DNA of 64,000 nucleotides. Origin: Candidatus Woesearchaeota archaeon. Its GTDB lineage: Archaea; Nanobdellota; Nanobdellia; Pacearchaeales; GW2011-AR1. The position numbers and the translations under genes were made by a program. The notes under the pieces were generated by a model. The model did no database searches, was not told where the DNA came from, and worked only from the letters and a program-made list of their open reading frames with translations. The DNA lies in assembly GCA_964495875.1 (NCBI GenBank), contig CAZBWB010000002.1:24363-88362 (forward strand), read 5' to 3'. Of the stretch, positions 26,740 through 51,780 are shown piece after piece; position 1 is the first letter of the stretch, and every line of letters starts with the position of its first letter.

Positions 26740-27372
26740 ATGAAATCCATATTTATCCCTGCAAAAATCAAGGCAAGAGTAAACAAAAAGAAAATAAAAT
26801 TTCTTTCAAAGAAACTTCCGAAAAATATAGCAATTGTTTATTCTGTTCAGTATCAAGAAATAGCTAAAAATATAAAAGAAATCCTCTTAGAAGACCATAA
26901 TATAACTGATTTTTTCCAAATTTTAGGATGTTCAAAGCCGGATTTTTCAAGCCAAACACAGGCAGTATTATTGATAACCTCTGGAAGATTTCATGCAATG
27001 TCTCTTGCAATTGAATCCAATCTTCCTATTTATATATTGGGAAATAAAGAATTAAAACAGATTTCAAAAGAAGAAATAATATCCCTTAAGAAAAAACAAA
27101 AAGCAGCTTATTTGAAATTTCTAAATGCAGATTGTGTCGGGATTTTAGTATCAACAAAACCAGGACAGGAAAATCTGAAAAAAGCTCTTGGGTTAAAAAA
27201 AAGCCTTGATAAAAAGTCTTATGTATTAATAGGGAATGAAATCAATAGTTTAGAATTTGAAAATTTCTCAATTGATTCTTGGATAAATACAGCATGCCCA
27301 AGATTAGACATGGATTTTCCTATTATTAATATAAGAGAATTAAACATTAGCAAGTCCAAAAAGAGTTTTTAG
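26740..27372 (+). CDS. dph2: miniature Dph2-like diphthamide-synthesis radical-SAM protein (210 aa)
   Basis: TSGRFHA and NTACPRLD motifs; one Cys in each third (LGCSKP, NADCVG, TACPR). Confidence 0.55.
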   Translation: MKSIFIPAKIKARVNKKKIKFLSKKLPKNIAIVYSVQYQEIAKNIKEILLEDHNITDFFQILGCSKPDFSSQTQAVLLITSGRFHAMSLAIESNLPIYILGNKELKQISKEEIISLKKKQKAAYLKFLNADCVGILVSTKPGQENLKKALGLKKSLDKKSYVLIGNEINSLEFENFSIDSWINTACPRLDMDFPIINIRELNISKSKKSF

Positions 27373-27729
27373 AGCCACAACAATTGTTGCAGGAACAAAC
27401 AAAGCCAAAAGAGCAGCAAAAGTTGAAGAGACTATATTTCCAACCCCTAATCCGAGAAGCGAACCAAGAACACTTTCCATTCCAAATCTGCTTACAACAA
27501 CAAGAATTGCACCAGTAATTAAAAATGTCTGAGAGTCCTTTCTTGCCACTTTTATTGAAAATCCAACGACTAACCCAATAATTACCAATATACCATAAAT
27601 TATAGAACTATATGTTTGCAAAGAGGGTATTGAAAAAAAACTTGCAGAAATTCCGATTAAAACAGCGAGTATAACTCCTATCAGAAATGCCCATGCACCA
27701 ATTGAATTTTCTCTAGCTTTTATCCCCAT
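27340..27729 (-). CDS. hypothetical membrane protein (4 predicted TM helices)
   Basis: Hydrophobic, Gly-rich helices; converges on and overlaps the Dph2-like 3' end by 33 nt. Confidence 0.5.
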   Translation of the reverse strand: MGIKARENSIGAWAFLIGVILAVLIGISASFFSIPSLQTYSSIIYGILVIIGLVVGFSIKVARKDSQTFLITGAILVVVSRFGMESVLGSLLGLGVGNIVSSTFAALLALFVPATIVVALKTLFGLANV

Positions 27730-27877: not shown

Positions 27878-29560
27878 ATGAAAACAAAAATCTTCACATT
27901 ATTGAGCTTAAGCATTTTAGCTTTGGTGATAATGGCTGGAGTGGTAAGTGCAGCAATAACTCTTACGCCAGATACATATTCAACAAGCATACAACAAGAT
28001 GCTTCAGATTCTTTTACTTTTGTGATTCATAATGATGGAGCAGGTGGAGATTATAATCTAATTAATATAAGTGCAGATGTTTCTGATTTAACAGGTTCTG
28101 CTGGAACAATTTCTTCAGATAATGTTGTTATATCAAATCTTCCAACAAGTGTTGGAGATGATGAAGATAGTTCTGATGTCACTGTTAAAATAAATATTGA
28201 TGAATTTCAAGCAGCAGGAGTATACACAGGAACAATAGAAATTAGTGGGGAGCATGAAGGTTCAACTGGTTCACCAGATCCTAAACAAATTTCTCTTACA
28301 GTGACAGTAACAGAAAAACCAAGACCTGAAGAAGTTCAGGAATGTATATTAACAGGAAATGATGCTGGAGCAGATAATGATGATTTAGAACTTAAAATAA
28401 AAGACATATCTGTTGTATCTGGATTTGGTGAGGATACAGATTGGTTCCCTTTTGACAAAGTTGAAGTAGAAATTGAGGTAAAGAATGATAATAATGATTA
28501 TAAGATGAAAGATATCACAATCGGATGGGGACTTTATGATACTGAAACAGGAGACTGGTATGTTGATGAAGAAGAGAATGATTTTAACTTAAAATCTGAT
28601 GATAAAAAAACTTTAACAGTAAGTTTTGAACTTGATGAAGATATAGATGAACTTGCTGAAGGAGATTATGTTTTTTATGTTTGGGCTAATGCTGTTTTAG
28701 ATGCAGACACAGAAAAAGATCTTTGTGCGAGTGTTTTCGAAGACGAAATTTCAATAGCAGATGAAAACGACTTTGTAATTTTGAATAATATACAATTTCC
28801 AGAAACAGCCTCTTGCGGAAGCCCAATTCAAATAACAGCAAATGTCTGGAATATTGGTGATGAAGATCAAGAAGATGTTCTTGTTGTAATTCAAAGCGAA
28901 GAATTAGGAATCACTAAAAAAATAGTTGTAGGAGATATTGATGCTTTTGAAGATGAAAAGATTGATGTTCTTTTGAATATTCCTCAGGATGCAGAAGAAA
29001 AATCATACCTATTTTCTTTGAAGGTATTTGACGAATATGGAGAAGTATTTGAAAATGATAATGATGACAAGGCAGAATTCCAAGTTTACTTAAAAGTTGA
29101 AGGTTTATGCTCAAGTGAACCAAAAGTGACAGTTTCTGCTTCATTAGAATCAGAAGCAAAAGCAGGCGAGGATTTGATAATTAAAGTAACTGTAACAAAT
29201 AGTGGTGTAAAAACAGGCACATTTGATGTAAGTTTGAGTGATTATTCTGATTGGGCAACTTTGGAAAGTGTTGTTCCAGGAACTCTTACTCTGAATGCAG
29301 GAGATTCAGAAGACGTTATAGTAACACTAAAAATAAATTCAGATGTTTCCGGCAACAAGAACTTTAATGTTTTAGTAACAGAAGGAACAAAAGTATTTTC
29401 ACAGCCAATTGCAGTAATGGTAGAAAAACAAGGCGGATTTGGCGGAATTACAGGCGGAATAATCTCAGAAGGAAACTGGCCAATCTGGGTAATCGGAGCA
29501 GTGAATGTTGTTCTGATATTCATAATAATTCTAGTAGCACTAAAAGTTGCTAAAAAGTAG
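27878..29560 (+). CDS. acidic surface protein with CARDB-like beta-sandwich repeats and a C-terminal TM anchor
   Basis: Sec signal (LSILALVIMAGVVSA), repeated ...VTVTNSG/ANVWNIGD... segments, C-terminus GGFGGITGGIISEGNWPIWVIGAVNVVLIFIIILVALKVAKK. Confidence 0.7.
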   Translation: MKTKIFTLLSLSILALVIMAGVVSAAITLTPDTYSTSIQQDASDSFTFVIHNDGAGGDYNLINISADVSDLTGSAGTISSDNVVISNLPTSVGDDEDSSDVTVKINIDEFQAAGVYTGTIEISGEHEGSTGSPDPKQISLTVTVTEKPRPEEVQECILTGNDAGADNDDLELKIKDISVVSGFGEDTDWFPFDKVEVEIEVKNDNNDYKMKDITIGWGLYDTETGDWYVDEEENDFNLKSDDKKTLTVSFELDEDIDELAEGDYVFYVWANAVLDADTEKDLCASVFEDEISIADENDFVILNNIQFPETASCGSPIQITANVWNIGDEDQEDVLVVIQSEELGITKKIVVGDIDAFEDEKIDVLLNIPQDAEEKSYLFSLKVFDEYGEVFENDNDDKAEFQVYLKVEGLCSSEPKVTVSASLESEAKAGEDLIIKVTVTNSGVKTGTFDVSLSDYSDWATLESVVPGTLTLNAGDSEDVIVTLKINSDVSGNKNFNVLVTEGTKVFSQPIAVMVEKQGGFGGITGGIISEGNWPIWVIGAVNVVLIFIIILVALKVAKK

Positions 29561-29572
29561 AGATAAAGAATT

Positions 29573-30190
29573 TCATTTCCTGAAAATCTTCTTGTAAATT
29601 TTTTCTCCGAATTTATATTCTTTTTCCAATCTTATTATTAGCATTCCGCATACATAACCTATTAATCCGCCAATCACTACGTCACTTAAAAAGTGAAGTC
29701 CAAAATAGACTCTTGAAAATGCTACTAGCGAAGCAAAAGCAATCCATATATATTTGAATCTTGGAAATTGTTTTGATAAAATAGGAACAGCACAAAAGGC
29801 GAGCATTGCATGAAAAGACGGAAAAGAAAAATTCCATGTTAAATAACTGGCTTTTTCAAGCAAAGGCAAAACAGAAACAATACCTAATTGGAAAGGTCTC
29901 TGTTTTTGCACAATTATCTTTAAAACAAAGCTTACCAATACTGAAACACCCAATGTGGTCCATAGAGGAAGAATCCACTTTCTTTTATGCTCTCTCCACA
30001 AAAATAAACTTGTCAGAAAAAAGAAAATTATGATTGAAGAGCTGAGGGAAGTTATGCCAAGAAAAAAATCATTTAGAATATCATTCCTTAAAAAAGAAAC
30101 CCCATAAACTATGTCTGAATCAAAATATAAACTTACTGTCACTATTAATAACAGCAACAAGCCCCAGATAAGCCCTCTTTTTTTATCCAT
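29573..30190 (-). CDS. PAP2-family lipid phosphate phosphatase
   Basis: All three PAP2 motifs: KIIVQKQRP, PSFHA, SRVYFGLHFLSDV. Confidence 0.8.
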   Translation of the reverse strand: MDKKRGLIWGLLLLLIVTVSLYFDSDIVYGVSFLRNDILNDFFLGITSLSSSIIIFFFLTSLFLWREHKRKWILPLWTTLGVSVLVSFVLKIIVQKQRPFQLGIVSVLPLLEKASYLTWNFSFPSFHAMLAFCAVPILSKQFPRFKYIWIAFASLVAFSRVYFGLHFLSDVVIGGLIGYVCGMLIIRLEKEYKFGEKIYKKIFRK

Positions 30191-30209
30191 TATTCTATAA
30201 ACATTAAAT

Positions 30210-30219
30210 TATTTAAATA
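30210..30219. promoter_or_regulatory. palindromic bidirectional TATA box TATTTAAATA
   Basis: The 8-mer register is 25.5 nt from both divergent ATGs (30190 minus, 30239 plus); intergenic space is only 48 nt. Confidence 0.55.
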
Positions 30220-30238
30220 CGTTTCCACTAAAATATTT

Positions 30239-30808
30239 ATGAAAAAAGGTTCAAAAACATTATTTTCAATATTGATAAGATACATAATCTTGATTTTATT
30301 AGGATTGCCAAATCTCTGGCTTTTTTATCTCATCTTCACTCCATTGACAGTCTACCCTGTTTTTTTTCTTCTAAATTTATTTTTTACAGCCTCTTTAGCG
30401 GGTAACTCTATCTCTATACCTTTGCTTTCTGACAAAATTGAAATAATAGAAGCATGTGTGGCAGGTGCTGCATATTACCTGCTCTTGATTCTTAATCTGG
30501 CAATTCCAATGAAAATAAACAAAAGATTAAAGATGTTCTTATTCTCTTTTGGAGCTCTCCTTTTACTGAACATTCTCAGAATTTTTTTGCTTAGTCTATT
30601 GTTTATTTCTGGAACATCTTTTTTTGATATAACGCATGAACTTTTTTGGTATTTGGGAAGCACAATTTTTGTCGTAGGAATCTGGTTTGCCGGCGTTAAA
30701 ATTTTTAAGATTAAAGAAATTCCCTTTTATTCGGATTTAAAAAATACAGGAATTTTAAAATATTTAAAGAAAACTAAGAAATCCAAGCGTTCCAAAAAGA
30801 ATAAATAA
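30239..30808 (+). CDS. small exosortase/archaeosortase-family-like membrane protein
   Basis: 189 aa, polytopic; ordered Cys (IEACVAG), Arg (LLNILRIF) and His (DITHELFWY) in or near TM segments, as in archaeosortase active sites. Confidence 0.5.
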   Translation: MKKGSKTLFSILIRYIILILLGLPNLWLFYLIFTPLTVYPVFFLLNLFFTASLAGNSISIPLLSDKIEIIEACVAGAAYYLLLILNLAIPMKINKRLKMFLFSFGALLLLNILRIFLLSLLFISGTSFFDITHELFWYLGSTIFVVGIWFAGVKIFKIKEIPFYSDLKNTGILKYLKKTKKSKRSKKNK

Positions 30809-31240
30809 TCCAGCTATCAACACTCCGATTGATATTGCTAAAATACTTTTTTTTCTGTTTAAATCAAGTAGCCATGACAAAAGGCAACCTGTCCAAGCGC
30901 CTGTTCCGGGCAAAGGAACTGCAACAAATAAAATCAATGCAAAAAATCCGAGTGTTTCATATCTCTTTTCAAATCTGTCAACCTTTTTCTGAAATCTTTC
31001 AATATATTTTTCAAATAATTTTTTATAAAAATTAGTTCTTAAAAAAATATGATGGAGATTGTCCAAAAAATAAAATACAAAAAAAATCACGAAAATATTC
31101 AACAAAACTATCAGAGAAAAAATGAGCCATACCGGAATATTGTGCTCTGTGGCATATAATATCGCAATAGGCAAACCTGCCCTTAATTCAGTTACAGGCA
31201 TTATCGTAAGAAGAACTGCATAAAGAAGTCTCAAGTCCAT
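30764..31240 (-). CDS. small multi-TM protein (COG2426 'small multidrug export'-like)
   Basis: N-terminal LLTIMPVTELRAGLPIA motif; 158 aa. Confidence 0.5.
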   Translation of the reverse strand: MDLRLLYAVLLTIMPVTELRAGLPIAILYATEHNIPVWLIFSLIVLLNIFVIFFVFYFLDNLHHIFLRTNFYKKLFEKYIERFQKKVDRFEKRYETLGFFALILFVAVPLPGTGAWTGCLLSWLLDLNRKKSILAISIGVLIAGLFILFGTLGFLSFL

Positions 31241-31245
31241 TTTAT

Positions 31246-32007
31246 TTAATCTTCATTTTGTTCCTCTAACGCTTCATTAACTCTTGCAAGCATTTCTACC
31301 ATTAATTTTTCTGTGACTTGGAGTACTTCACAGTTATTTATATTCAAATTGTAACAGGTATTATCAAATTGCTCTATACTTGTTTCATTCCCCTGTTGTA
31401 ATTGTATAAAAGTATATTCTCTTCCAGGGTCACATACAAGACTTTCATTTTTTATAGGTTCACCTTTTAAAGCAACCATTAGATTCATTAGATTTGCAAC
31501 ACCGATAATTCCATCACCATCACAATTAAAATTTTCTGTAAAATTTAAAACAATTTGTTTTCTCATAACCAATTCTTCTACGTCGAAAGGTATCTTTTCT
31601 AATTTTCTTGGATCATTTCTTAAATAAAAATTATAATGTCCTGCAATTACTTTTCCAAGAGTAACCTTTTTATCAGAACCTACTGGTAAAGAAGTTTTAT
31701 AAATTGTTTTTCCAACAAGTGTTTTTCTGTCAATTTCAAATTTAATCCCTTTATAAGTAAAATGATTCATAGAATTAATTAAAATAAAAATTCCAACAAA
31801 AAATAATGCCAGTATTCCTGCAATCAAAAATATTTTTTTTAATTGTTCATTCTCTTTTTTTATTTGTTCTTCAACTTTTTTCTCGGGTTTTTCCCCATCT
31901 TCAATAATTTTCCCCCCGTCATCTTTTTCTTTTTTAATATCAATAATTTCACGAGTTTCCTCTTTCTTCTTCTCTTTTTCCTTCCCTTTTCTTTCTCTTT
32001 TTTTCAT
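31246..32007 (-). CDS. N-terminally anchored extracellular protein (paralogue 1)
   Basis: K/E-rich cytoplasmic head, one TM, ectodomain with FTYKGIKFEI and ...ETSIEQFDNTCYNL; own CTTATAAA box 25.5 nt upstream. Confidence 0.55.
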   Translation of the reverse strand: MKKRERKGKEKEKKKEETREIIDIKKEKDDGGKIIEDGEKPEKKVEEQIKKENEQLKKIFLIAGILALFFVGIFILINSMNHFTYKGIKFEIDRKTLVGKTIYKTSLPVGSDKKVTLGKVIAGHYNFYLRNDPRKLEKIPFDVEELVMRKQIVLNFTENFNCDGDGIIGVANLMNLMVALKGEPIKNESLVCDPGREYTFIQLQQGNETSIEQFDNTCYNLNINNCEVLQVTEKLMVEMLARVNEALEEQNED

Positions 32008-32041: not shown

Positions 32042-32605
32042 TTATATTCCAATTATTTTAAGTAAGAAGCCATCAGTAATCTTTGCCAAATCTTCTAATT
32101 TTCCTCTGATAAATACACAATTATTATCCTGAACAATCTCGGTTGCATCTGCTTCTTTAATTGTGATAAAATTATCTTCGCAGGTTTTTACAGGAAGCTC
32201 TTCATCTTCACACACTTCTCCATCCAAACAGGCCAATTGCATTCTCTGTATTATAGACTCAAGATTACGATAAATCTCGCTGGAGGATTCTATATCATCT
32301 GACGAAATATAAAGAGGTTTGTCATAATAATTATTTATGGATTTTAATTCTGAATCAATTGTTTCTATCTCATTTGGATTATATCTGAATGAAAACTCAG
32401 AATTTTCAATTTCAACAATCCAAAACCCGTTTTTTTCAATAAATTCATACCCGTTATAGGTAATCTTATTTTCTTCAGAATTACTTCTGCTAAAAGAATA
32501 CCCAAAAATACTCGCAAATAGGATTAAAACCAAAGCCAATCCAACAATTAACTGATTTCTTTTCTTCTTCTTTTCTTCTTTTCTTTTTGATGTTATCTTT
32601 CTCAT
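32042..32605 (-). CDS. N-terminally anchored extracellular protein (paralogue 2)
   Basis: Same architecture; ITYNGYEFIE and ...ATEIVQDNNCVFI align with 31246..32007; own TTTTTATA box 25.5 nt upstream. Confidence 0.55.
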   Translation of the reverse strand: MRKITSKRKEEKKKKRNQLIVGLALVLILFASIFGYSFSRSNSEENKITYNGYEFIEKNGFWIVEIENSEFSFRYNPNEIETIDSELKSINNYYDKPLYISSDDIESSSEIYRNLESIIQRMQLACLDGEVCEDEELPVKTCEDNFITIKEADATEIVQDNNCVFIRGKLEDLAKITDGFLLKIIGI

Positions 32606-35931: not shown

Positions 35932-36512
35932 TAATACACATTAAAGGATATTTCATAATCTTCATTGCTTCTTGTAAAATCCTGGGCAGCCCCCTTGTAA
36001 TTCTGTGTTATGTTGCCTTTATTAACCAACAGAAGTTCCTCTCCTTCTAAACTAATTCTCAAGGCATAGCCTTTTATTGGAGTATCCTCTCCTACATTCC
36101 AGCTATTCTCACAGATTTCCTTTAAAGTAATTTCCATTGTTTCACAGGCACTTCTGCCATCTAGGCACATTTCATCATCTCCGCAACTAAAAATCAGATT
36201 TTGCACAGATAAAAAGCCTGTGGAATCTTCACAATCAGTCGTATATTGCAAAAATGACTGGATAAATCCTTCAACTTCATAACTTTCAATTTCCATCTTA
36301 GAACTTCTCAGGGAAAAACTAAGGAAAAAAAGCAATATAACAGATACTATGATTATTATCAATACAAACCCAACCATTTCCTCTTGCGAGCGTTTGCCCG
36401 AGACAAGATGGTCAAAATAATCCCGAGTGTGAACGGGAGTAGAGCGTTTTGACCTTGGACAAATTTTTTGTATTAATCCCAATGTTAAGGCGCGAGTTTT
36501 TTTATTTTTCAT
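35928..36512 (-). CDS. pilin-like protein 5 (194 aa), long basic N-terminus
   Basis: ...GKRS|QEEMVGFVLIIIIVSVILLFFL then a Cys-containing ectodomain; ATGA overlap with the upstream gene. Confidence 0.45.
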   Translation of the reverse strand: MKNKKTRALTLGLIQKICPRSKRSTPVHTRDYFDHLVSGKRSQEEMVGFVLIIIIVSVILLFFLSFSLRSSKMEIESYEVEGFIQSFLQYTTDCEDSTGFLSVQNLIFSCGDDEMCLDGRSACETMEITLKEICENSWNVGEDTPIKGYALRISLEGEELLLVNKGNITQNYKGAAQDFTRSNEDYEISFNVYY

Positions 36513-37048
36513 GTTTTATCCTCAGAACTTACCATCAATCTTGCAAGTTCACATTTACCATAAACTCCTGTGTCTGAACTTTCTTTCCAGCATAATGCAA
36601 CAAAATTTGATGAAGCAGGCAATTTATTTACATTTTTTGAATAAACTTCAATAACTCCGCAATCAGGAAAATTTCCCGAATTACATACGATATTCCCTTC
36701 ATCCGGGTAGATTTTTCTTATCTTTATTTCAGCAATTCCCCAAAAGCCAACATATTTTGATATATGCTCTTTTAAAATCATGATTTTGTCAGCATCAATA
36801 CAATTCAACTTGCTGCTTCCAAAAGAATCTCCGCAAGCAAACTCAGGCGAATTAGCAAGTTTTGCAACAAGTAGCATAGAGTTCTCTTCTTCAAGAATAT
36901 TTGCACTTTGTTTTAGATTGGAAAATCTTATTACTAATACAAATATTCCAACAAATATAAAAAAAAGCGTAACTGCTATTAGCATAAATGCCATTTGCTG
37001 AACCTTCAGTTGTCCTTTGTTATGTGATTTTCTTTTTTTTATTACCAT
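36509..37048 (-). CDS. type IV pilin-like protein 4 (class III signal peptide)
   Basis: MVIKKRKSHNKG|QLKVQQMAFMLIAVTLFFIFVGIFVLVI. Confidence 0.55.
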   Translation of the reverse strand: MVIKKRKSHNKGQLKVQQMAFMLIAVTLFFIFVGIFVLVIRFSNLKQSANILEEENSMLLVAKLANSPEFACGDSFGSSKLNCIDADKIMILKEHISKYVGFWGIAEIKIRKIYPDEGNIVCNSGNFPDCGVIEVYSKNVNKLPASSNFVALCWKESSDTGVYGKCELARLMVSSEDKT

Positions 37049-37965
37049 AATCCACATCTGCTTTCCATTTCATTTTTATAATCAAGATTTTCAATTTTTT
37101 CCTCTAACAAAAGAACATCCTTTGAATCATCAAAATCTTCTGCGAGTTCAGATAATTCTGTTAAATAACTATCAATATCAGATTCACAACCTTTCTCTCT
37201 AATTAATAATGCTTTATCTCTATATATCAGAGAGAGTTCTTCTATTCTTTGCATCAATCTTTTTAACTGACATTCATAAACATCAACATCTCCAAAAATC
37301 CCAGCATACATTAGTGCATCAGACACAAAATACATTTTTTTCCCTTGTTTTTTGACATATCCATAATCATAATTCACACTAATATCACAATTTCCTGAAA
37401 AGCATACATTAATCATATCATCAGAGCAACCTCCTGTTAAAAGATTCTCTTGATTTAATTTTTCGATTTCATATTCAATTTCCTCCGGAGCATTAACAAA
37501 ACAATAAATGTCTTTGGAAGAAGTCATGTAAATTAAATCAGCAACCTTGAACGGAAAATCAAATGGCTTTGAAAAAATATAAAATGTTTGTCCTTCAATA
37601 ATTTCTTTTGAAAAGATATACTTGTTTGAAAAACCCACATCGGTATTTGTCTCTGTCCATGTATTAAAACTTTTTTGCGAAACTTTAATCAGTTGTTTGC
37701 CGAAGTTTCCTGCATTATTACAGCTGTTGTAAATTCTTGATTCTGCCGGTATTGTGAATGATGTTGTTTTTGCTGATTCAAAACCAGTCTCCAAAGGATT
37801 AAGCAGAATCCCGATTTCTTTTCCTGTTTTGGCATCAATCGTTGTTCGTTCTGTTTTCATAAGTTTTGTCACTCCGTAAATCGCAAGAAAAATTATAAAG
37901 ATTCCTACAATAATCGCAAAAAGCCATCCGAAAGATATTTGTAAAGCACCTCTTTTCTTTTTCAT
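37042..37965 (-). CDS. type IV pilin-like protein 3 (class III signal peptide), 307 aa
   Basis: MKKKRG|ALQISFGWLFAIIVGIFIIFLAIYGV; ORF opens at 38016. Confidence 0.55.
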   Translation of the reverse strand: MKKKRGALQISFGWLFAIIVGIFIIFLAIYGVTKLMKTERTTIDAKTGKEIGILLNPLETGFESAKTTSFTIPAESRIYNSCNNAGNFGKQLIKVSQKSFNTWTETNTDVGFSNKYIFSKEIIEGQTFYIFSKPFDFPFKVADLIYMTSSKDIYCFVNAPEEIEYEIEKLNQENLLTGGCSDDMINVCFSGNCDISVNYDYGYVKKQGKKMYFVSDALMYAGIFGDVDVYECQLKRLMQRIEELSLIYRDKALLIREKGCESDIDSYLTELSELAEDFDDSKDVLLLEEKIENLDYKNEMESRCGLW

Positions 37966-37981
37966 TTTTCCAATCAGAGAT

Positions 37982-38410
37982 TTACGAACGGGTAATTGTA
38001 ACCAAAGATTCCCCATATTCTTTTATAACTATCATTCTTATCTTACCCCCAATATTATCTATGCAATAAGGATTTTCTGAGGATGTAATTTTTCCAATAT
38101 CGATATGTTCAATTTTTCCCCTGTCAACTATTTTTTCTGAATCAAACATTAAATTCTGAGATTCATCAATGAAGCAAACCGCATTTATGCTGTTTGGAAG
38201 AGAATATTCTTTTGTCTGACTTCCCTGCTGACTCTGCCACATTTGATTCACGTCTGCCTGCAGATTATCCATGAAAAGTTTAACCTGTATTGTTTTTTGC
38301 ATGTCGATAAATTTTATTATTGCATAAACAGCGACAGAAAGAAAAATAATTATAAGAAAAATGGAAAAAATCATTCCAAAGGATAATTTCAGCTGCCCCT
38401 TTTTTTTCAT
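37982..38410 (-). CDS. type IV pilin-like protein 2 (class III signal peptide), 142 aa
   Basis: MKKKG|QLKLSFGMIFSIFLIIIFLSVAVYAI; Q at +1 as in EppA-type archaeal pilins. Confidence 0.6.
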   Translation of the reverse strand: MKKKGQLKLSFGMIFSIFLIIIFLSVAVYAIIKFIDMQKTIQVKLFMDNLQADVNQMWQSQQGSQTKEYSLPNSINAVCFIDESQNLMFDSEKIVDRGKIEHIDIGKITSSENPYCIDNIGGKIRMIVIKEYGESLVTITRS

Positions 38411-38431
38411 TCTTAAAAAAAGCGATTAGAA

Positions 38432-38439
38432 CTTATAAA
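38432..38439 (-). promoter_or_regulatory. internal TATA box ahead of the four small pilin-like genes
   Basis: Reverse-strand TTTATAAG centred 25.5 nt upstream of ATG 38410, in the only real spacer of the operon. Confidence 0.45.
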
Positions 38440-38443
38440 TCTT

Positions 38444-40585
38444 TCAATATTCAAAAAATTCAAAAGGACGTAAAATTATATTGCATTTATTTTGTGCAGG
38501 CTTATTTCCATATTCATCCTGGCATTTTATGTATAAGTTATTGCTAGTATCCCATGCCACAGAATGAACTATGTCATCACCGCTTATCATGCTAAGCCCG
38601 TCTTCAAAATTATAAGAACATGAGGTAATATCATAAACACACTCTGCCGGCTCACTTGTTATTATTTTCAAATCCCCCCCTTCATAATATGCTCTTGTAA
38701 TTAAAGGTGTGGTAAAATCTGCTTCTACTTCAAGCTCTGTTGTGGCAGTTGCTACATTTCCGGCCATATCAAAACACTGTATATGATAAGTATAATCTCC
38801 TTCTGAAAGATAAAGTTCATCAGAGTGCTCATAAGAACGTGTATTTTTAAATTCAGTATAATCGTTGTAGTTTCCAGTACTGCTGTAATAACAATCTGCT
38901 ATTCCATTTTCATATCCTGCTGATGTTCTTGCTTGCAGTTTGATCTTGACAATATTACTTGAGCCTTTGATAATTCCGCTTGGCTCTACTGAATCAATCA
39001 CCAGAGCACGGGAACCGATTAAAGTTAATTCTTTGGATTCAGTATTCATGTTTCCTGCTGAATCACTGCACCTGAAATAAAATTTATTTTCTTCCTCATT
39101 TTGAAGTCCTGTCAATGTTCCAGAACATGAGTAGCTTATCTGGGCATTAAATGTGGTAAATTCACTTATTTTATCACCACACGATATCATCATTTCTTCC
39201 ATCTCTTCATAGGATTTATCGCTGTGGCTCCATCTGCATCCTCCATTCTCACTTAACAAAGGTTCATTGACATAAATTCTTACATTTGTTTCATGGGCTT
39301 CTGTTTCGCCGAAATATCTTATAGGTGTGTTATCTAAAAGATTAAATCCCTGAATCAGAGGTGGTGAAATATCTGGAAGAGGGTCAATGCAGAATTTAAA
39401 TAAAAATTCTCCTACATTAGCATAACCATTGACATTCTCACATCTCACATAATATTCATAATTTCCTCCTGACGGAAGTTCAATTCCTTCATTTTCAAGA
39501 TTTGCCTGTCCAGGGAAAAACATAAGTTGAGTATGGTTTCTGTCCCACAAACCGCTTCCAAAAGAAAGTTGCATATCATCAAAACTTGATGTTCTGTGGT
39601 CTTCTATCCTGCATGTTCCTTCTTTGTCTAATTCAATTCCAAAAGTAAAAGATTCAAAAGAAGGCAGACAACCGCCTTTGTATTTTACTTCAACTCCGTT
39701 TGTTGCTGGTATTGGCTCATAGGAATAATCACCAGACAACAAAGAATCCTCTCTTGGTGTTATCTTAGGAGAAGTCGTGTCTGTCGGACTTACATAAATA
39801 CATCTCGCATTATCTCCTTCATTTATCAGTTCACATGCCTGCCCCAGACTTTTACACTTGTATAATGTGCATGGAAATTCTCCTCCGTTGCATTTGTTAC
39901 AATCAGCTCCTCCTGTCTGCGATTGCCATGTCTTACAGTCAAATACCACTGCTCTTTGGTCTGTTCTCAAAGTCATCCTCCAGAAAGTGATTAATGCTGT
40001 TAGTATTCCAATCGGCCATCCCACTACCAATGTAGCTAAATTTGCACCCAATCCAATTCCTGTTGCAATTCCTGCTGCGAGATTTCCTACAGTAAAACCC
40101 AAACCAATAGAAGCTCCTATAGCATTTGCCCAAAAAAGGGCTTCGTCAACATCATGCCCTCCAGCCCACCATACTGCTGCAAAAGTTATCACCCAAGCAA
40201 CACCAGCCCAAAGCAATCCACTTTTCATTATATCAAACTTAATATTTACTTTTCCCAAAAGCTTAATAATTTCTTTTCCCAATTTTTCGCCCACAAAATA
40301 TGCTACTGAATGACCAGCTTCTACTTCCCCTACTGTTGCTAATACCCCTCCCCCTCCTGCTTTTGCCATTATTGCACCTGTTATAGAAGCCTTTGTATTT
40401 TCTTCTGATTCCTGGTCGGATTCATTGGATTTTATTATTGCTTTTCTTATAACATTAGTTGATAACGGAGAACTCGATGTCTGTGCAGAAATAATGTTTG
40501 TAAATGCTACGATGCTTGTGATTAAAATAAAAATCTGAATTAACGCAATAGATTTTTTTTCTCTTTTTCCATTATTCTTTTTCAT
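38444..40585 (-). CDS. 713-aa envelope protein: signal peptide, Gly-rich hydrophobic helices, Cys knot, four or more beta-sandwich repeats
   Basis: MKKNNGKREKKSIALIQIFILITSIVAFTNIISA signal. WAGVAWVITFAAVWWAGG / GASIGLGFTVGNLAAGIATGIGLGANLATLVVGW helices. Repeats YEYYVRCENVNG, FYFRCSDSAGN, YTYHIQCFDMAGN, LYIKCQDEYGN. Confidence 0.6.
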   Translation of the reverse strand: MKKNNGKREKKSIALIQIFILITSIVAFTNIISAQTSSSPLSTNVIRKAIIKSNESDQESEENTKASITGAIMAKAGGGGVLATVGEVEAGHSVAYFVGEKLGKEIIKLLGKVNIKFDIMKSGLLWAGVAWVITFAAVWWAGGHDVDEALFWANAIGASIGLGFTVGNLAAGIATGIGLGANLATLVVGWPIGILTALITFWRMTLRTDQRAVVFDCKTWQSQTGGADCNKCNGGEFPCTLYKCKSLGQACELINEGDNARCIYVSPTDTTSPKITPREDSLLSGDYSYEPIPATNGVEVKYKGGCLPSFESFTFGIELDKEGTCRIEDHRTSSFDDMQLSFGSGLWDRNHTQLMFFPGQANLENEGIELPSGGNYEYYVRCENVNGYANVGEFLFKFCIDPLPDISPPLIQGFNLLDNTPIRYFGETEAHETNVRIYVNEPLLSENGGCRWSHSDKSYEEMEEMMISCGDKISEFTTFNAQISYSCSGTLTGLQNEEENKFYFRCSDSAGNMNTESKELTLIGSRALVIDSVEPSGIIKGSSNIVKIKLQARTSAGYENGIADCYYSSTGNYNDYTEFKNTRSYEHSDELYLSEGDYTYHIQCFDMAGNVATATTELEVEADFTTPLITRAYYEGGDLKIITSEPAECVYDITSCSYNFEDGLSMISGDDIVHSVAWDTSNNLYIKCQDEYGNKPAQNKCNIILRPFEFFEY

Positions 40586-40586
40586 T

Positions 40587-42338
40587 TTATTTATGACTCT
40601 CTGCTTCTGGGATATTTGCTTTAGAGACATTTTCTCCCACAAATAATTCCTTCCATGAGTAATAGCTATTTTGCTGGATATAATTTGATTTTACTCCGCA
40701 ATCTCCTAAGACAATACATAATTCTTCCTGGTTTCCTGCCCATTCTGATTTTAAATCAACAGTGCCTACCCCTAATTCTCCGCTGGCACCCTTATCCATA
40801 AAAGATTCAGATTCAGGACATTTTCTGGCACAAAGTGCACGACAATCTCTAAGAACCGCTGTGCAATTATCCAAACATTCTGCATAGCATTTGCCTTCAA
40901 TAGCCTCCCATCCGCTCGTTACACTTTTAAAATATCCTGCAACAGAACTTGCACTTCCAACACTGCATACTTGTGAAGGAGATATCTGTGACTCAACTCC
41001 AAGTATTGCAGCATCTGGCTCCCAAAAATTAAACCCAGGAGGATATTTAGGAACACACATAGCTTTTATAGATTTAATAGACTCATTTATTAATTCTCCT
41101 GCTGAATTGTAATTAGAGGTATAATTTGAAAATAATATATCATCTCCGTTTTCATCTTTTCTGGTTACTCCCATCTCAATTTTGCAATCTCTTTGGTCTG
41201 TATCCAAGCATACTTTTGAACTATTTTGGAACACGCAGTCCTGCCATCTGTTCATAAAACAATTTGCTTCTCCAGGAACATCTTCTTTGCACAATTTTTC
41301 TCTTAAATTTCCGCATAATTCCCATTGAACCTCTCCATCATAGCAATAAAGTCTATAAGATAAATCTCCTGGTTTTGCATCTTCAAAAGAGATTATTGGT
41401 TCAGAACACCACGCACTGCCATGCGCTTTTATTTCTCCATTATAATTGCAACTTAAGTCTCCGCAGATATAATTTCCAGAATCAACGCTTTCTCCTGCTC
41501 TTTTTTCTCTGCACGTGCTTCCTAAAAGATAATTGCAGTTTCCGCAATTAGGTGAATCTGCATTTGAATTTCCATAACCACAAATCTCACTTGAAGCAGG
41601 GTCTTTTATGTAAGTCCAATAAGGAACATCATCTTCTAATCCAGAATTATAAACATTTGCAGGGTTTCCGCAGTTATCAACAAAAAAAACCTCGTTTCTC
41701 CCCTCAACACAGGTTGTTCTTTTAGTCATGGTGCATATTGTTCCTAATTCAGGAGCACTACACAACAGTCCTGCATGGAATTCTTTTCCTTCTGAATTGC
41801 ATTTTTCTCTTGTTTCAATAGTGCATTTTTTCCCTTCATCTGTCTGAAAAACACAAGCACCTTTTGCAGCAGGTCCTGCACTCAGCAAACATTCTTCCTG
41901 AGTTGTTATACTGTCGTCAAAATTTGGCTGAACTCCTATGTCTGCTGATACTTTATTGCAGGTTGTTCTCCGTATAAAAGAAGCACCTTCTCCAATAAAA
42001 CAACAGCCATACTGGCATTCAGCAATTTCTTCAGCATCTTTGTCATACCAATATCCTCCGAGATTAGGATTGCATGCTGTTGATGAAGAAGCCATACATG
42101 TTCCTTGTGCATTATTTACACAAGTGCCTGTTGAGCAATACTGGGTTGATTCACATGCAGTGTCATCTATTCTATAATTTTGATTGCAATACTGGCTATT
42201 CCCAACATCTAAACAAATCCCTCCGTTTATCGTCATCTCACAACAAATAGCACTTACAATATTTAATGAAAATATTATAAATATCCCTAATAAAATTCCT
42301 TTCAAAAATATTTTTTTAAATTCTCTTTTTTTAATCAT
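40587..42338 (-). CDS. 583-aa secreted cysteine-rich protein (~45 Cys)
   Basis: MIKKREFKKIFLKGILLGIFIIFSLNIVSA signal, then Cys every ~12 residues to the C-terminus; no family recognised. Confidence 0.6.
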   Translation of the reverse strand: MIKKREFKKIFLKGILLGIFIIFSLNIVSAICCEMTINGGICLDVGNSQYCNQNYRIDDTACESTQYCSTGTCVNNAQGTCMASSSTACNPNLGGYWYDKDAEEIAECQYGCCFIGEGASFIRRTTCNKVSADIGVQPNFDDSITTQEECLLSAGPAAKGACVFQTDEGKKCTIETREKCNSEGKEFHAGLLCSAPELGTICTMTKRTTCVEGRNEVFFVDNCGNPANVYNSGLEDDVPYWTYIKDPASSEICGYGNSNADSPNCGNCNYLLGSTCREKRAGESVDSGNYICGDLSCNYNGEIKAHGSAWCSEPIISFEDAKPGDLSYRLYCYDGEVQWELCGNLREKLCKEDVPGEANCFMNRWQDCVFQNSSKVCLDTDQRDCKIEMGVTRKDENGDDILFSNYTSNYNSAGELINESIKSIKAMCVPKYPPGFNFWEPDAAILGVESQISPSQVCSVGSASSVAGYFKSVTSGWEAIEGKCYAECLDNCTAVLRDCRALCARKCPESESFMDKGASGELGVGTVDLKSEWAGNQEELCIVLGDCGVKSNYIQQNSYYSWKELFVGENVSKANIPEAESHK

Positions 42339-42339
42339 T

Positions 42340-43098
42340 TTAACAATATCCGCTCGGTGAAAACACGAGACTTCTTGAAGCGAATTCAAATTTATTTCCT
42401 TTTTCTCTGTTTGTTATGATGTAAATTTTTGTATCGTCGCTTAAGAATTTTTTATCAATCTTAATATCAGGATAAAAATCCATGTAAATTGTTACATCAG
42501 TGTCTCCATAAGTCGCTTCCCATTCTAGTATACTGTTTGTAACTGCAATCAATTCATAAAGATTATTGTCAAGCACAACACTGAAAGAATCATATTTCTC
42601 TGTTTCTCCTTTTGTCAGTGTCAAGGAATAATCAAATGTAGAGACAATTCTGTCTGGAAGCAATTCTACATTCACAGGACCTTTTTTTAAATCCACACCA
42701 TATCCTTTTTTTTCATAATTTTCTTTTAAAGAATCAAAACAATCCTGGACTTCATCCTCAATTTCATTTTTTATTTCCTGTTCAATGTGTGGCTTTAATT
42801 GTGGTTCTTGAATAGAACAAAGTGCACAATATTGTGCAGTATAGCATAAATTTTTTATGTTTATATTATCAAAAGTGCTGAAGAATGCAGGTTCAAAATC
42901 TCCTCCCTGCAAAGAAATTTTTTCCACGACATCTTCAATCTCTTTTTCAGTGCATGCCTGAATGAATTCCGGAGGATTTTTCACACCTTTGCCAACTGCT
43001 GATTTTATCTGTGGAAAAAACATATATATCAAAATACCAAGCACAAAAATAACTATAGCAATTATGATAAAAATTGTAACCTGCCCCTTTTTTTCCAT
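42340..43098 (-). CDS. type IV pilin-like protein 1 (class III signal peptide), 252 aa
   Basis: MEKKG|QVTIFIIIAIVIFVLGILIYMF; first gene of the operon. Confidence 0.55.
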   Translation of the reverse strand: MEKKGQVTIFIIIAIVIFVLGILIYMFFPQIKSAVGKGVKNPPEFIQACTEKEIEDVVEKISLQGGDFEPAFFSTFDNINIKNLCYTAQYCALCSIQEPQLKPHIEQEIKNEIEDEVQDCFDSLKENYEKKGYGVDLKKGPVNVELLPDRIVSTFDYSLTLTKGETEKYDSFSVVLDNNLYELIAVTNSILEWEATYGDTDVTIYMDFYPDIKIDKKFLSDDTKIYIITNREKGNKFEFASRSLVFSPSGYC

Positions 43099-50739: not shown

Positions 50740-51236
50740 TTTATATTCTCATTATTTTTATCTTTATTAATTATTTCTTTAAGTCTTTTTTCTAATATTC
50801 CTTTTTCAACTTGCAATACTCTCGCTACTTCATCATAACCATGAAGTCTTCTTATAAGTTCATTAAATATCTCGTTCCATCCGTTATTTGTCAGTGCAAT
50901 TAATTCAGGAGAAATAATTTCAATATGTGCAGGCATATATCTGAACATCAGATATGCGAGGGAAGACATTTCATCAATTTCAACTTCAATTTCAGCAAAA
51001 CTTGTGTAAAAATCTTGCTGTGGTTTGATTTTTTTCTCTTCTCCGGTTTCCATGATTTTGACATTTTCTTTCATAGGAACTGGCTCTTTTATGTCCTTGT
51101 TTTTGACACTAATTCCTTTCTCTTTATCAATTTGCTCTATCAGTTTCTTCAGTGTTTCAACCAAATGTTCCGGCGGCTTTCCAATTATCTCAAATATAAC
51201 TACTGCCCTGATTTTCTTTGCTTCATCTAAACTCAT
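50736..51236 (-). CDS. hypothetical 166-aa protein (second gene of the ComEA-like operon)
   Basis: 14-nt overlap with the ComEA-like gene; no family recognised. Confidence 0.5.
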   Translation of the reverse strand: MSLDEAKKIRAVVIFEIIGKPPEHLVETLKKLIEQIDKEKGISVKNKDIKEPVPMKENVKIMETGEEKKIKPQQDFYTSFAEIEVEIDEMSSLAYLMFRYMPAHIEIISPELIALTNNGWNEIFNELIRRLHGYDEVARVLQVEKGILEKRLKEIINKDKNNENIK

Positions 51237-51780
51237 TTTTATATTTTTTATTTTTTATCATGAATAAAATTCCAAGCAAAACACAAAAAGCCATAAAGCC
51301 ATACTTAGCATAATTCTGCTTGTATGAATTTTCCTTGTCATTTTCAGTTTTTATATCTTTTGTATTCAACGTGTTTAATTTAATTATTTCCAATTCCACA
51401 GTTTTATTATTTTCCCTTTCTTCATCAACTATTGAAACTGATTCTTCTGATTTATTTTCAGGTTTTTCAGTTTCTTCTGTTATCTTTTCTTCTTCAGATT
51501 CCTTTTCATCTTCTTCATCTTCATCATCAACACATGCCAATCCCTGTTCTTTTATTTTGTTTAAAGTTTTTTCTCCGATTCCATACACATTTATCAAATC
51601 ATCAACAGAATCAAAAGGACGAGTATTAATTATTTCCTGTGCTTTAACTTCACCTATCCCATATAATTTATCCAACTCTTCTGCAGATGCTGTGTTGATA
51701 TTAATTTGGTCTTCATTGCAGGATGCAGAGATAAAAGAAATAGAAAATAAAACCATGATAAATACTATCCATCCTTTCAT
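51223..51780 (-). CDS. ComEA-like helix-hairpin-helix DNA-binding protein, signal peptide plus C-terminal TM
   Basis: ININTASAEELDKLYGIGEVKAQEIINTRPFDSVDDLINVYGIGEKTLNKIKEQG is a tandem HhH ComEA signature; followed by an acidic linker and FMAFCVLLGILFMI anchor. Confidence 0.75.
   Translation of the reverse strand: MKGWIVFIMVLFSISFISASCNEDQININTASAEELDKLYGIGEVKAQEIINTRPFDSVDDLINVYGIGEKTLNKIKEQGLACVDDEDEEDEKESEEEKITEETEKPENKSEESVSIVDEERENNKTVELEIIKLNTLNTKDIKTENDKENSYKQNYAKYGFMAFCVLLGILFMIKNKKYKNEFR

Follow-up and report, generated by a model that had tools for sequence, protein, structure and literature searches.

Does the short polytopic membrane protein encoded beside a C-terminally anchored surface protein in this 64-kb stretch of archaeal DNA (the whole of which we call the window) act as a sortase, and if so, which surface proteins would it process? 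The original prediction described the 189-aa protein as a small archaeosortase-like enzyme and proposed a new sorting signal, [ISY]-T-G-x-I-I, on three proteins: the 560-aa neighbor and two further surface proteins, here termed p47 and p49. The window derives from a DPANN archaeon of Pacearchaeota type and includes a conserved cluster of cell-envelope genes (Table 1). Considered together, our data make it probable that this cluster contains a pacearchaeosortase with one PACE-CTERM substrate, processed in an ArtA-like manner, and that p47 and p49 are not substrates defined by the motif. The prediction as a whole is partly confirmed, the sortase call being right but already known.

Table 1. Features of the window discussed in the text, with positions in the window, strand, and the properties on which each assignment is based
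Feature	Position	Strand	Properties
129-aa polytopic membrane protein, conserved	27340..27729	-	Divergent from the PACE-CTERM gene; in synteny upstream of it in most loci reaching there
PACE-CTERM protein, 560 aa	27878..29560	+	Signal peptide, Ig-like/CARDB-like ectodomain, C-terminal tripartite tail; presumed sole sortase substrate
Predicted signal peptide MKTKIFTLLSLSILALVIMAGVVSA	27878..27952	+	Basic N terminus, hydrophobic core, V-S-A in translation; predicted from sequence
PACE-CTERM tail domain, residues 506-560	29393..29557	+	Tail profile 83.5 bits
I-T-G, residues 524-526, conserved small motif	29447..29455	+	I/L 76%, T 69%, G 79% (71 unique tails)
Tail TM helix (approximate), conserved membrane-proximal Asn	29483..29542	+	Columns 34-50: L 96%, I 100%, N 83%
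K-V-A-K-K, basic stop-transfer end at extreme C terminus	29543..29557	+	Columns 51-55: R/K 99%, R/K 92%, K/R 83%
PAP2-family lipid phosphate phosphatase, 205 aa	29573..30190	-	PF01569 1e-19; between substrate and sortase genes
Pacearchaeosortase, 189 aa	30239..30808	+	NF033505 and TIGR04178 matches; five predicted helices, Lys-rich C-terminal tail
Cys73 codon (IEACVAG)	30455..30457	+	Presumed catalytic nucleophile; invariant; role by analogy with ArtA Cys-173 (PMC7157517)
Arg114 codon (LLNILRIF)	30578..30580	+	Conserved active-site Arg; invariant
His133 codon (DITHELFWY)	30635..30637	+	Conserved His; invariant
PF06695 protein, DedA superfamily, 158 aa	30764..31240	-	PF06695 7e-33
253-aa protein, conserved	31246..32007	-	N-terminal membrane anchor; after sortase/DedA slot in nearly all loci reaching there
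187-aa protein, conserved	32042..32605	-	N-terminal membrane anchor; syntenic in loci with the 253-aa gene
S-layer-like protein, 826 aa	32699..35179	-	Signal peptide; PF05124 S_layer_C 26.6 bits, cutoff 23.9; no C-terminal TM
p47, predicted type-I membrane protein, 596 aa	47151..48941	+	Excluded as substrate; Cys-rich repeats, one TM helix, ~75-aa Pro/Arg-rich cytoplasmic tail
p49, predicted type-I membrane protein, 437 aa	49201..50514	+	Excluded as substrate; Cys-rich juxtamembrane module, one TM helix, 23-aa cytoplasmic tail

The 189-aa protein is a pacearchaeosortase

The two open reading frames at the center of the prediction are present as described. The 189-aa protein matches the NCBIfam model NF033505 “pacearchaeosortase” at 217.4 bits (cutoff 80; profile positions 2–161 of 167) and passes the core signature of exosortases and archaeosortases, TIGR04178, at 35.4 bits (cutoff 23), the latter match covering residues 67–155 and profile positions 1–94 of 97. 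A protein database search returned 1,951 homologs, several of them named pacearchaeosortase by NCBI and others labeled “exosortase/archaeosortase family protein” by NCBI or JGI; identity to the GenBank proteins that carry the specific name is 73%–75%. The prediction had also singled out an ordered Cys, Arg and His. An alignment of 15 homologs at 57%–75% identity shows no variation at these residues, Cys73, Arg114 and His133. Within the exosortase/archaeosortase superfamily the protein is of minimal form, with five helices. Searched against Pfam, it gave no match at E ≤ 1; two of its close homologs carry a precomputed match to PF09721.

The five helices of an AlphaFold model of moderate confidence (pLDDT 72.8; residues 3–22, 24–48, 72–87, 93–123 and 129–155) agree with the polytopic character first noted. 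Under the positive-inside rule, the Lys-rich C terminus and the basic 88–96 loop would bring Cys73, Arg114 and His133 near the outer ends of helices 3–5. On this placement of helices 3–5, in a model of moderate confidence, the triad may lie at the outer face of the membrane. A profile search of the PDB found no sequence relative of the sortase, and a Foldseek comparison of its model with the PDB returned noise only (best E 1.5, TM 0.16–0.32); by these Foldseek and sequence searches, no exosortase/archaeosortase structure appears to be available.

Also in the superfamily is ArtA of Haloferax volcanii and methanogens, a polytopic Cys/Arg enzyme likewise associated with a tripartite C-terminal tail. 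Its cleavage of PGF-CTERM tails yields lipid-anchored substrates (PMC6098224); Cys-173 is an active-site residue of the enzyme, and the reaction proposed for it includes a thioester intermediate that archaetidylethanolamine resolves (PMC7157517). At about 300 aa (912-bp gene; PMC7157517) ArtA is larger than the window sortase, as had been pointed out, but such a small size is ordinary. The profiles of XrtH, XrtM, XrtR, XrtX and XrtY comprise 150–168 positions, and those of the NCBIfam small exosortases and heimdallarchaeosortase together 150–199. Models of this last group match the window sortase weakly over the catalytic core (residues ∼63–156), at 10–22 bits against their own cutoffs of 86–170, and they differ from it in lineage and in cognate tails. 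The ArtA–ArtE models gave no match at E ≤ 1.

The PACE-CTERM neighbor and its tail

The 560-aa protein matches NF033506 “PACE-CTERM-PROT” at 414 bits (cutoff 110), with residues 163–560 aligned to profile positions 218–627 of 627, so that the C-terminal end is included. A CARDB match from Pfam is borderline, and a sequence search of the PDB found no relative of this protein. Since both NF033505 and NF033506 are passed, the gene pair is a curated, named system, of which the window proteins are members with the same lineage and adjacency and no difference. The original prediction, made from raw sequence, correctly recognized a sortase-like enzyme and a tail-anchored partner, but this is a rediscovery: the pacearchaeosortase/PACE-CTERM pair is already known as curated NCBIfam families. 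A literature search found no paper using either name and no experiment on the pair. What we add is modest and descriptive and leaves current understanding unchanged: the tail signature position by position, statistics on the 1:1 pairing, the clade-limited T-G, and a wider conserved cluster comprising the PAP2 gene, a DedA-superfamily slot, two anchored proteins and the S-layer-like protein. The slot, with its mutually exclusive occupants, is unreported.

Immediately before its stop codon the protein reads ...GGITGGIISEGNWPIWVIGAVNVVLIFIIILVALKVAKK. Its tail domain comprises, in order, a last β strand (QPIAVMVEK), a Gly-rich linker, G-I-T-G, a spacer, N-W-P-I-W-V-I-G-A-V-N, the TM helix and K-V-A-K-K. 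Across 71 unique orthologous tails the signature is G-[IL]-T-G, ∼6 residues, N-W-Y-L-W-G-I-G-A-L-N, a TM helix and a C-terminal R/K-x-A-R/K-K/R, and in these as in the window the tripartite arrangement of small motif, TM helix and basic cluster occupies the extreme C terminus. In keeping with the original prediction, the tail is not of the PGF-CTERM type, and it contains no PGF; nor is it PEP-CTERM. In ArtA substrates P-G-F abuts the helix, whereas in PACE tails the small motif is followed by the spacer and N-W-Y-L-W-G-I-G. T-G is present in 48 of the 71 tails, ∼10 residues ahead of the helix, and absent from the other 23, so no small motif is universal. T-G conservation is clade-limited, and for one clade I-T-G is a candidate site of cleavage or recognition.

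To describe the pairing of the two genes we use 103 sortase-centered loci from Pacearchaeota, Woesearchaeota and Nanoarchaeota MAGs (930 kb and 1,223 ORFs; at most 20 kb per locus, plus the 64-kb window). The tail profile matched exactly one ORF in 75 of these loci and never two, and every match was the gene preceding the sortase on its own strand. Of the 28 loci with no tail match, 25 break off within 1.1 kb upstream of the sortase, and another after just 1.9 kb. Where at least 3 kb is available upstream, a PACE homolog lies immediately upstream of the sortase on the same strand in 46 of 48 loci. In the window the two genes are 679 bp apart, and the PAP2 gene is the only one between them. A single same-strand match per locus suggests an enzyme dedicated to one substrate, and in the DNA examined, sortase-centered loci and window alike, the pairing appears to be one enzyme to one substrate. 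ArtA, in contrast, has 1–52 substrates per genome (PMC6098224). The profile match and the adjacency bear out the earlier view of the neighbor as the likely substrate.

A different reading of the same pair is that the PACE-CTERM helix is a permanent anchor and that the sortase homolog has a different task within the envelope cluster, perhaps working with the PAP2 and DedA-type proteins on a lipid or glycan carrier, or serving as a non-catalytic partner, and leaves its neighbor uncleaved. The TM segment is unusually conserved, including its Asn, which could mean a lasting helix–helix interaction rather than a discarded signal, and the tight linkage of lipid-handling genes and the lack of a universal small motif are compatible with this. 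Against it, the invariant Cys/Arg/His and the exosortase signature argue for retained catalysis, and the strict 1:1 adjacency is expected of a dedicated enzyme–substrate pair. Moreover, a sortase accompanied by an extreme-C-terminal tripartite tail is the hallmark of all characterized or curated exosortase/archaeosortase systems (PMC6098224). We therefore regard a permanent anchor as unlikely and favor processing of the PACE-CTERM tail by the adjacent sortase.

The proteins p47 and p49

TM-plus-basic tails in the window were located by a hydropathy scan. The original prediction gave all three proteins a tripartite C-terminal tail. This is correct for the 560-aa protein, but in p47 and p49 further residues follow the basic cluster: ∼75 beyond GYTGVIILAILIVLTILGIIFRKK in p47, so that its C terminus is not there, and ∼20 beyond ...FWFYKKK in p49. 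Relatives of p47 (n = 150) have a median of 83 residues after the TM helix, and orthologs of p49 share the conserved tail WF[YF]KKKY[KR]xAKKP[VI][DN]LLKIAKGK. Such strong conservation of the cytoplasmic tails implies that both families keep a working helix and tail, which argues against their removal by a sortase.

A cytoplasmic extension alone does not exclude processing, since a tripartite signal need not be C-terminal to be processed by ArtA (PMC6098224, citing Abdul Halim 2017). The proposal is that the small sortase serves several substrates, including p47 and p49, through [ISY]-T-G-x-I-I just ahead of a TM helix. The pattern [ISY]TG.II turns up 11 times in the 274,047 ORF residues of the 103 loci, where shuffles predict 1.8, an excess that speaks for a shared signal. 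Six of the 11 cases are PACE tails, three fall in the middle of members of an unrelated family of 129-aa membrane proteins, and the remaining two are those of p47 and p49. T-G is kept in most PACE tails (Table 1), but the exact pattern fits only the 6 cases among 71. It is found in none of 150 p47 relatives and in 30 of 116 p49 relatives; the p49 orthologs (n = 116) do keep a juxtamembrane G-[KR]-I-I-G, with the motif Gly at 95%, but the motif Thr at 38%. The T-G that stands ahead of the helix in PACE-CTERM abuts it in p47 and p49, so the three motifs are out of register. Even with filters off and matches admitted up to E = 10, the tail profile picked up neither p47 nor p49, and neither matched NF033506. 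A common signal on the three proteins is thus largely refuted, and we consider it very unlikely that the sortase serves p47 and p49 in this way. From sequence, both are ordinary type-I membrane proteins rather than substrates defined by a common motif.

The envelope gene cluster and a proposed mechanism

The PAP2 protein has weak similarity to undecaprenyl-diphosphatases. Of the 48 loci that reach 3 kb or more upstream, 25 contain its gene, which typically ends 49 bp ahead of the sortase start. On the other side, the PF06695 gene is convergent with the sortase gene, their 3′ ends overlapping by 45 bp. This slot beside the sortase holds PF06695 in 36 of 82 loci and a VTT/DedA gene in 28, never both, and a DedA-type gene is missing in 18. 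Both families belong to the DedA superfamily (bioRxiv 10.1101/2020.12.18.423352), members of which are described as flipping undecaprenyl phosphate or phosphatidylethanolamine (PMC12893004, PMC10193950). artA is also linked to lipid-metabolism genes in some genomes and adjoins lipid-synthesis genes in Methanosarcina (PMC7157517); its lipid neighbors are PssA/PssD, whereas those of the pacearchaeosortase are PAP2 and DedA-type proteins. By synteny, the PAP2 and DedA-type proteins are plausibly linked to sortase function.

By analogy with ArtA/PGF-CTERM in Haloferax, we infer a mechanism in which, after Sec export, the tail helix would keep the PACE-CTERM protein in the membrane. The sortase would then recognize the tail and, by way of a thioester intermediate at Cys73, cleave at some point between G-[IL]-T-G and the helix. 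The new C terminus would be passed to an amine-bearing membrane lipid, replacing the peptide anchor with a lipid anchor, and at the outer leaflet this lipid, or a polyprenyl carrier, would plausibly be supplied or recycled by the PAP2 phosphatase and the DedA-superfamily protein (PF06695 in the window, VTT/DedA in other loci).

The 826-aa S-layer-like protein, or yet another protein, could be imagined as the main substrate in place of the PACE-CTERM neighbor, given that the Haloferax S-layer glycoprotein is the major ArtA substrate (PMC6098224) and that the S-layer-like gene lies 1.1–5.7 kb downstream of the sortase in 30 of 33 loci with at least 6 kb downstream. However, the protein and its orthologs end in ...TSTSA-LVV, with neither a hydrophobic helix nor a basic end, and so offer no tripartite signal. 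This makes the idea extremely improbable, and the PACE-CTERM protein remains the preferred substrate. A sequence search of the PDB found no relative of the 826-aa protein.

A bolder arrangement, which we put forward as speculative and doubtful, is a two-component envelope in which the PACE-CTERM protein would be the anchor subunit and the anchorless S_layer_C protein the lattice; the sortase would exchange the peptide for a lipid anchor, the lipid being presented at the outer leaflet by the DedA-type protein and processed by PAP2. If true, the cluster would be a self-contained surface-anchoring module, with G-[IL]-T-G as a clade-specific cleavage site. The organisms that carry such clusters are thought to scavenge lipids from their hosts. 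An anchorless lattice-type protein encoded near a secreted, TM-anchored one recalls, as an analogy alone, SlaA/SlaB of Sulfolobus, in which SlaB is C-terminally TM-anchored (PMC6098224). The Sulfolobales differ in having no archaeosortase (PMC6098224), and sequence searches with the two window proteins found no similarity to any solved structure.

DPANN archaea attach to host cells by means of their surfaces, which are almost uncharacterized, and this makes the cluster a reasonable target for proteomics or cryo-ET. Profile searches gave no family match for the 129-aa protein encoded divergently from the PACE-CTERM gene. In some loci, a ∼206-aa protein encoded downstream of the sortase was considered as a second substrate, as it ends in K-[IL]-[IV]-T-G and a helix; this candidate was rejected, being a polytopic VTT/DedA protein whose T-G is not conserved in the family.

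A pacearchaeosortase and its single partner

The 189-aa protein, encoded in a window of ∼32% G+C, belongs to the exosortase/archaeosortase family, as the original prediction had proposed. In a profile search it matches NF033505 (“pacearchaeosortase”) at 217.4 bits (cutoff 80) and the exosortase/archaeosortase signature TIGR04178 at 35.4 bits (cutoff 23). The ordered Cys, Arg, and His first likened to active-site residues are exactly C73, R114, and H133, all invariant in an alignment of 15 homologs. Weak, sub-threshold matches to XrtX, XrtY, XrtR, XrtH, XrtM, and heimdallarchaeosortase were also seen and, because the profiles of these other mini-sortases span 150–199 positions, the small size of the protein is not unusual. 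The protein database holds 1,951 homologs, several of which carry the NCBI name pacearchaeosortase or the JGI name exosortase/archaeosortase family protein.

The neighboring ORF encodes a 560-aa protein that matches NF033506 (“PACE-CTERM-PROT, putative S-layer protein”) at 414 bits (cutoff 110), with the match extending to the profile's C-terminal end. Its N terminus is signal-peptide-like (MKTKIFTLLSLSILALVIMAGVVSA), and its tail contains the stretch ...GNWPIWVIGAVNVVLIFIIILVALKVAKK and ends in ...GGITGGIISEGNWPIWVIGAVNVVLIFIIILVALKVAKK. Both ORFs exist as predicted. The sortase-substrate pair is real and was rightly recognized, yet it falls within a family that has already been curated. The literature apparently contains no description of the system; our search found no papers using its names. 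No PDB relatives were found by sequence for the sortase profile, the PACE-CTERM protein, or the S-layer-like protein encoded downstream, nor by comparing the fold of the sortase model (pLDDT 72.8) against the PDB.

We compared 103 sortase-centered loci (22 from genomes, 80 from metagenomes, and the window; 930 kb, 1,223 ORFs) using a tail profile built from 17 PACE tails. Exactly one ORF per locus matched in 75 loci, and never two; it always lies on the sortase strand and ends 30–2,173 bp upstream of the sortase gene. Upstream DNA is shorter than 1.1 kb in 25 of the 28 loci lacking a match and just 1.9 kb in another, L023. Two exceptions are informative: L012, which carries a divergent tandem pair of PACE paralogs, and L019, which has none. 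A PACE-protein homolog is present in 46 of the 48 loci having at least 3 kb upstream, and in the DNA covered here enzyme and partner occur 1:1. The tandem paralogs (L012:5556-9730, +) fall below the tail-profile threshold; in these the helix is followed by a long Lys-rich tail of ∼20–30 residues, versus the usual 5-residue basic end. Two taxon labels stand out: one pacearchaeosortase (P0074) is labeled Candidatus Thorarchaeota, and L016 (DAITPU010000003.1), with a full Pacearchaeota-type cluster, is labeled “bacterium.” Both are probably mislabeled or mis-binned MAG contigs.

The tail signature and two proteins proposed to share a sorting motif

Conservation across 71 unique PACE tails begins with Q-P-V-S-V-x-I-E-K, which is the last ectodomain strand, followed by a Gly/Ser-rich linker. 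A small motif (G 52%, I/L 76%, T 69%, G 79%) then precedes ∼6 residues and a pre-helix block of N (85%), W, Y, L, W (73%), G, I (80%), G (73%), A, L, and N (83%). In the helix, L reaches 96% and I 100%, and the C-terminal end reads R/K, x, A, R/K, K/R. [ILFMV]-T-G matches 48 of the 71 tails, ∼10 residues ahead of the helix. The other 23 tails still adjoin bona fide sortases and retain the helix and basic end, so T-G is a real but clade-limited element.

The sorting signal originally put forward, [ISY]-T-G-x-I-I, fits just 6 of the 71 tails. It occurs 11 times against 1.8 expected: in six PACE tails, mid-protein in three members of the 129-aa membrane protein family, and in the two further proteins for which it was proposed. 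T-G lies close to the helix start in 2% of all predicted helices and in 6% of C-terminal-proximal anchors.

Those two proteins, the adjacent p47 and p49, had been described as ending in the same tripartite tail. This is inaccurate: ∼75 more residues follow ...GIIFRKK in p47, and ∼20 follow ...FWFYKKK in p49. Because ArtA, the archaeosortase of Haloferax volcanii and methanogens that cuts PGF-CTERM tails, can process signals located away from the C terminus (PMC6098224), the extensions alone are not disqualifying. What counts decisively against p47 and p49 as sortase substrates is that the motif is not conserved and that their cytoplasmic tails are. Among 119 relatives of p49, the juxtamembrane segment has the consensus S-S-x-G-[KR]-I-I-G-W (Gly 95%, Thr only 38%); the cytoplasmic tail, W-F-[YF]-K-K-K-Y-[KR]-x-A-K-K-P-[VI]-[DN]-L-L-K-I-A-K-G-K, is strongly conserved and in some members longer by 120–160 residues. 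The proposed pattern is absent from all 150 representatives of the p47 family, which have the consensus K-S-Y-W-W-I-W and a median of 83 residues after the helix. Neither protein matches NF033506 or, at thresholds as permissive as E ≤ 10 and with filtering disabled, the PACE tail profile. The data do not support a sorting motif shared by these two and the PACE-CTERM protein. A Cys-rich module (..V-C-C-x-G-x-C..) ahead of the helix is common to p47 and p49, and their resemblance probably reflects its common descent. The p47 cytoplasmic tail, R-D-K-L-R-x-x-W-x-x-x-K-S-K-F and then ∼60 Pro/Arg-rich residues, is strongly conserved too, and both tails are basic.

A conserved envelope cluster around the pair

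The interest of the locus lies mainly in the conserved envelope cluster and its DedA-superfamily slot.

Features of the window. The first eight rows follow the conserved cluster order, with the PF06695 gene in the DedA-superfamily slot
Feature	Position	Strand	Remarks
Polytopic membrane protein, 129 aa	27340..27729	-	Divergent, upstream of PACE-CTERM gene in most loci
PACE-CTERM protein, 560 aa	27878..29560	+	NF033506 match
PAP2 lipid phosphatase, 205 aa	29573..30190	-	PF01569, 1e-19; between PACE-CTERM and sortase genes
Pacearchaeosortase, 189 aa	30239..30808	+	NF033505 match
PF06695 protein	30764..31240	-	Convergent with sortase gene; 3′ ends overlap 45 bp in the window
Anchored protein, 253 aa		-	After DedA-superfamily slot
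Anchored protein, 187 aa		-	After 253-aa protein
S-layer-like secreted protein, 826 aa	32699..35179	-	PF05124 S_layer_C match
p47, type I membrane protein, 596 aa	47151..48941	+
p49, type I membrane protein, 437 aa	49201..50514	+

The 129-aa protein has no family matches; other members of its family occur at L082:5880-6269, L100:6538-6927, and L074:5633-6025. The PAP2 gene is found in about half of the loci. Directly after the sortase gene lies PF06695 (−) in 36 loci, and VTT/DedA PF09335 (+) in 28; 18 loci have neither, and no locus has both. The VTT/DedA gene is co-directional with the sortase gene, 2–30 bp past its stop (L053:2106-2732, +, and 27 other loci). Since the two families are both placed in the DedA superfamily (bioRxiv 10.1101/2020.12.18.423352), their alternation looks like displacement within one superfamily. 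This arrangement suggests that the slot is functionally tied to the sortase. The VTT/DedA protein itself briefly looked like a second sortase substrate, a reading we rejected.

For ArtA, Cys-173 is an active-site residue, the proposed mechanism runs through a thioester intermediate that archaetidylethanolamine resolves, and artA is linked to lipid-metabolism genes (PMC7157517, PMC6098224). By analogy, pacearchaeosortase would most likely cleave the tail of its single partner, at a putative site, after Sec export, and most likely leave the PACE-CTERM protein lipid-anchored. DedA superfamily members are described as flipping undecaprenyl phosphate or phosphatidylethanolamine (PMC12893004, PMC10193950), and a plausible role for the PAP2 and DedA-type neighbors would be to supply lipid or recycle a carrier.

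An ∼820-aa S_layer_C protein is encoded 1.1–5.7 kb downstream of the sortase gene in 30 of the 33 loci with enough DNA. The S-layer-like protein of the window has no C-terminal helix or anchor. For the lattice, it is a stronger candidate than the NF033506 “putative S-layer protein”; the latter might serve as an anchoring subunit instead.

Other possible surface loci in the window

A run of genes at 36509..43098 (−) encodes products that start with K-G-Q and then a hydrophobic stretch (e.g., MKKKGQLKLSFGMIFSIF and MEKKGQVTIFIIIAIVIF), a pattern similar to archaeal class III (type IV pilin-like) signal peptides. Large proteins of 583 and 728 aa are among the products, and the run may represent a locus for a pilus or surface filament. 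At 51223..51780 (−), a 185-aa protein has a signal peptide and a C-terminal TM anchor, together with a ComEA-type helix-hairpin-helix DNA-binding region that scores 51.9 bits against TIGR00426, just below the 53.1 cutoff. The protein might bind or take up DNA at the cell surface.
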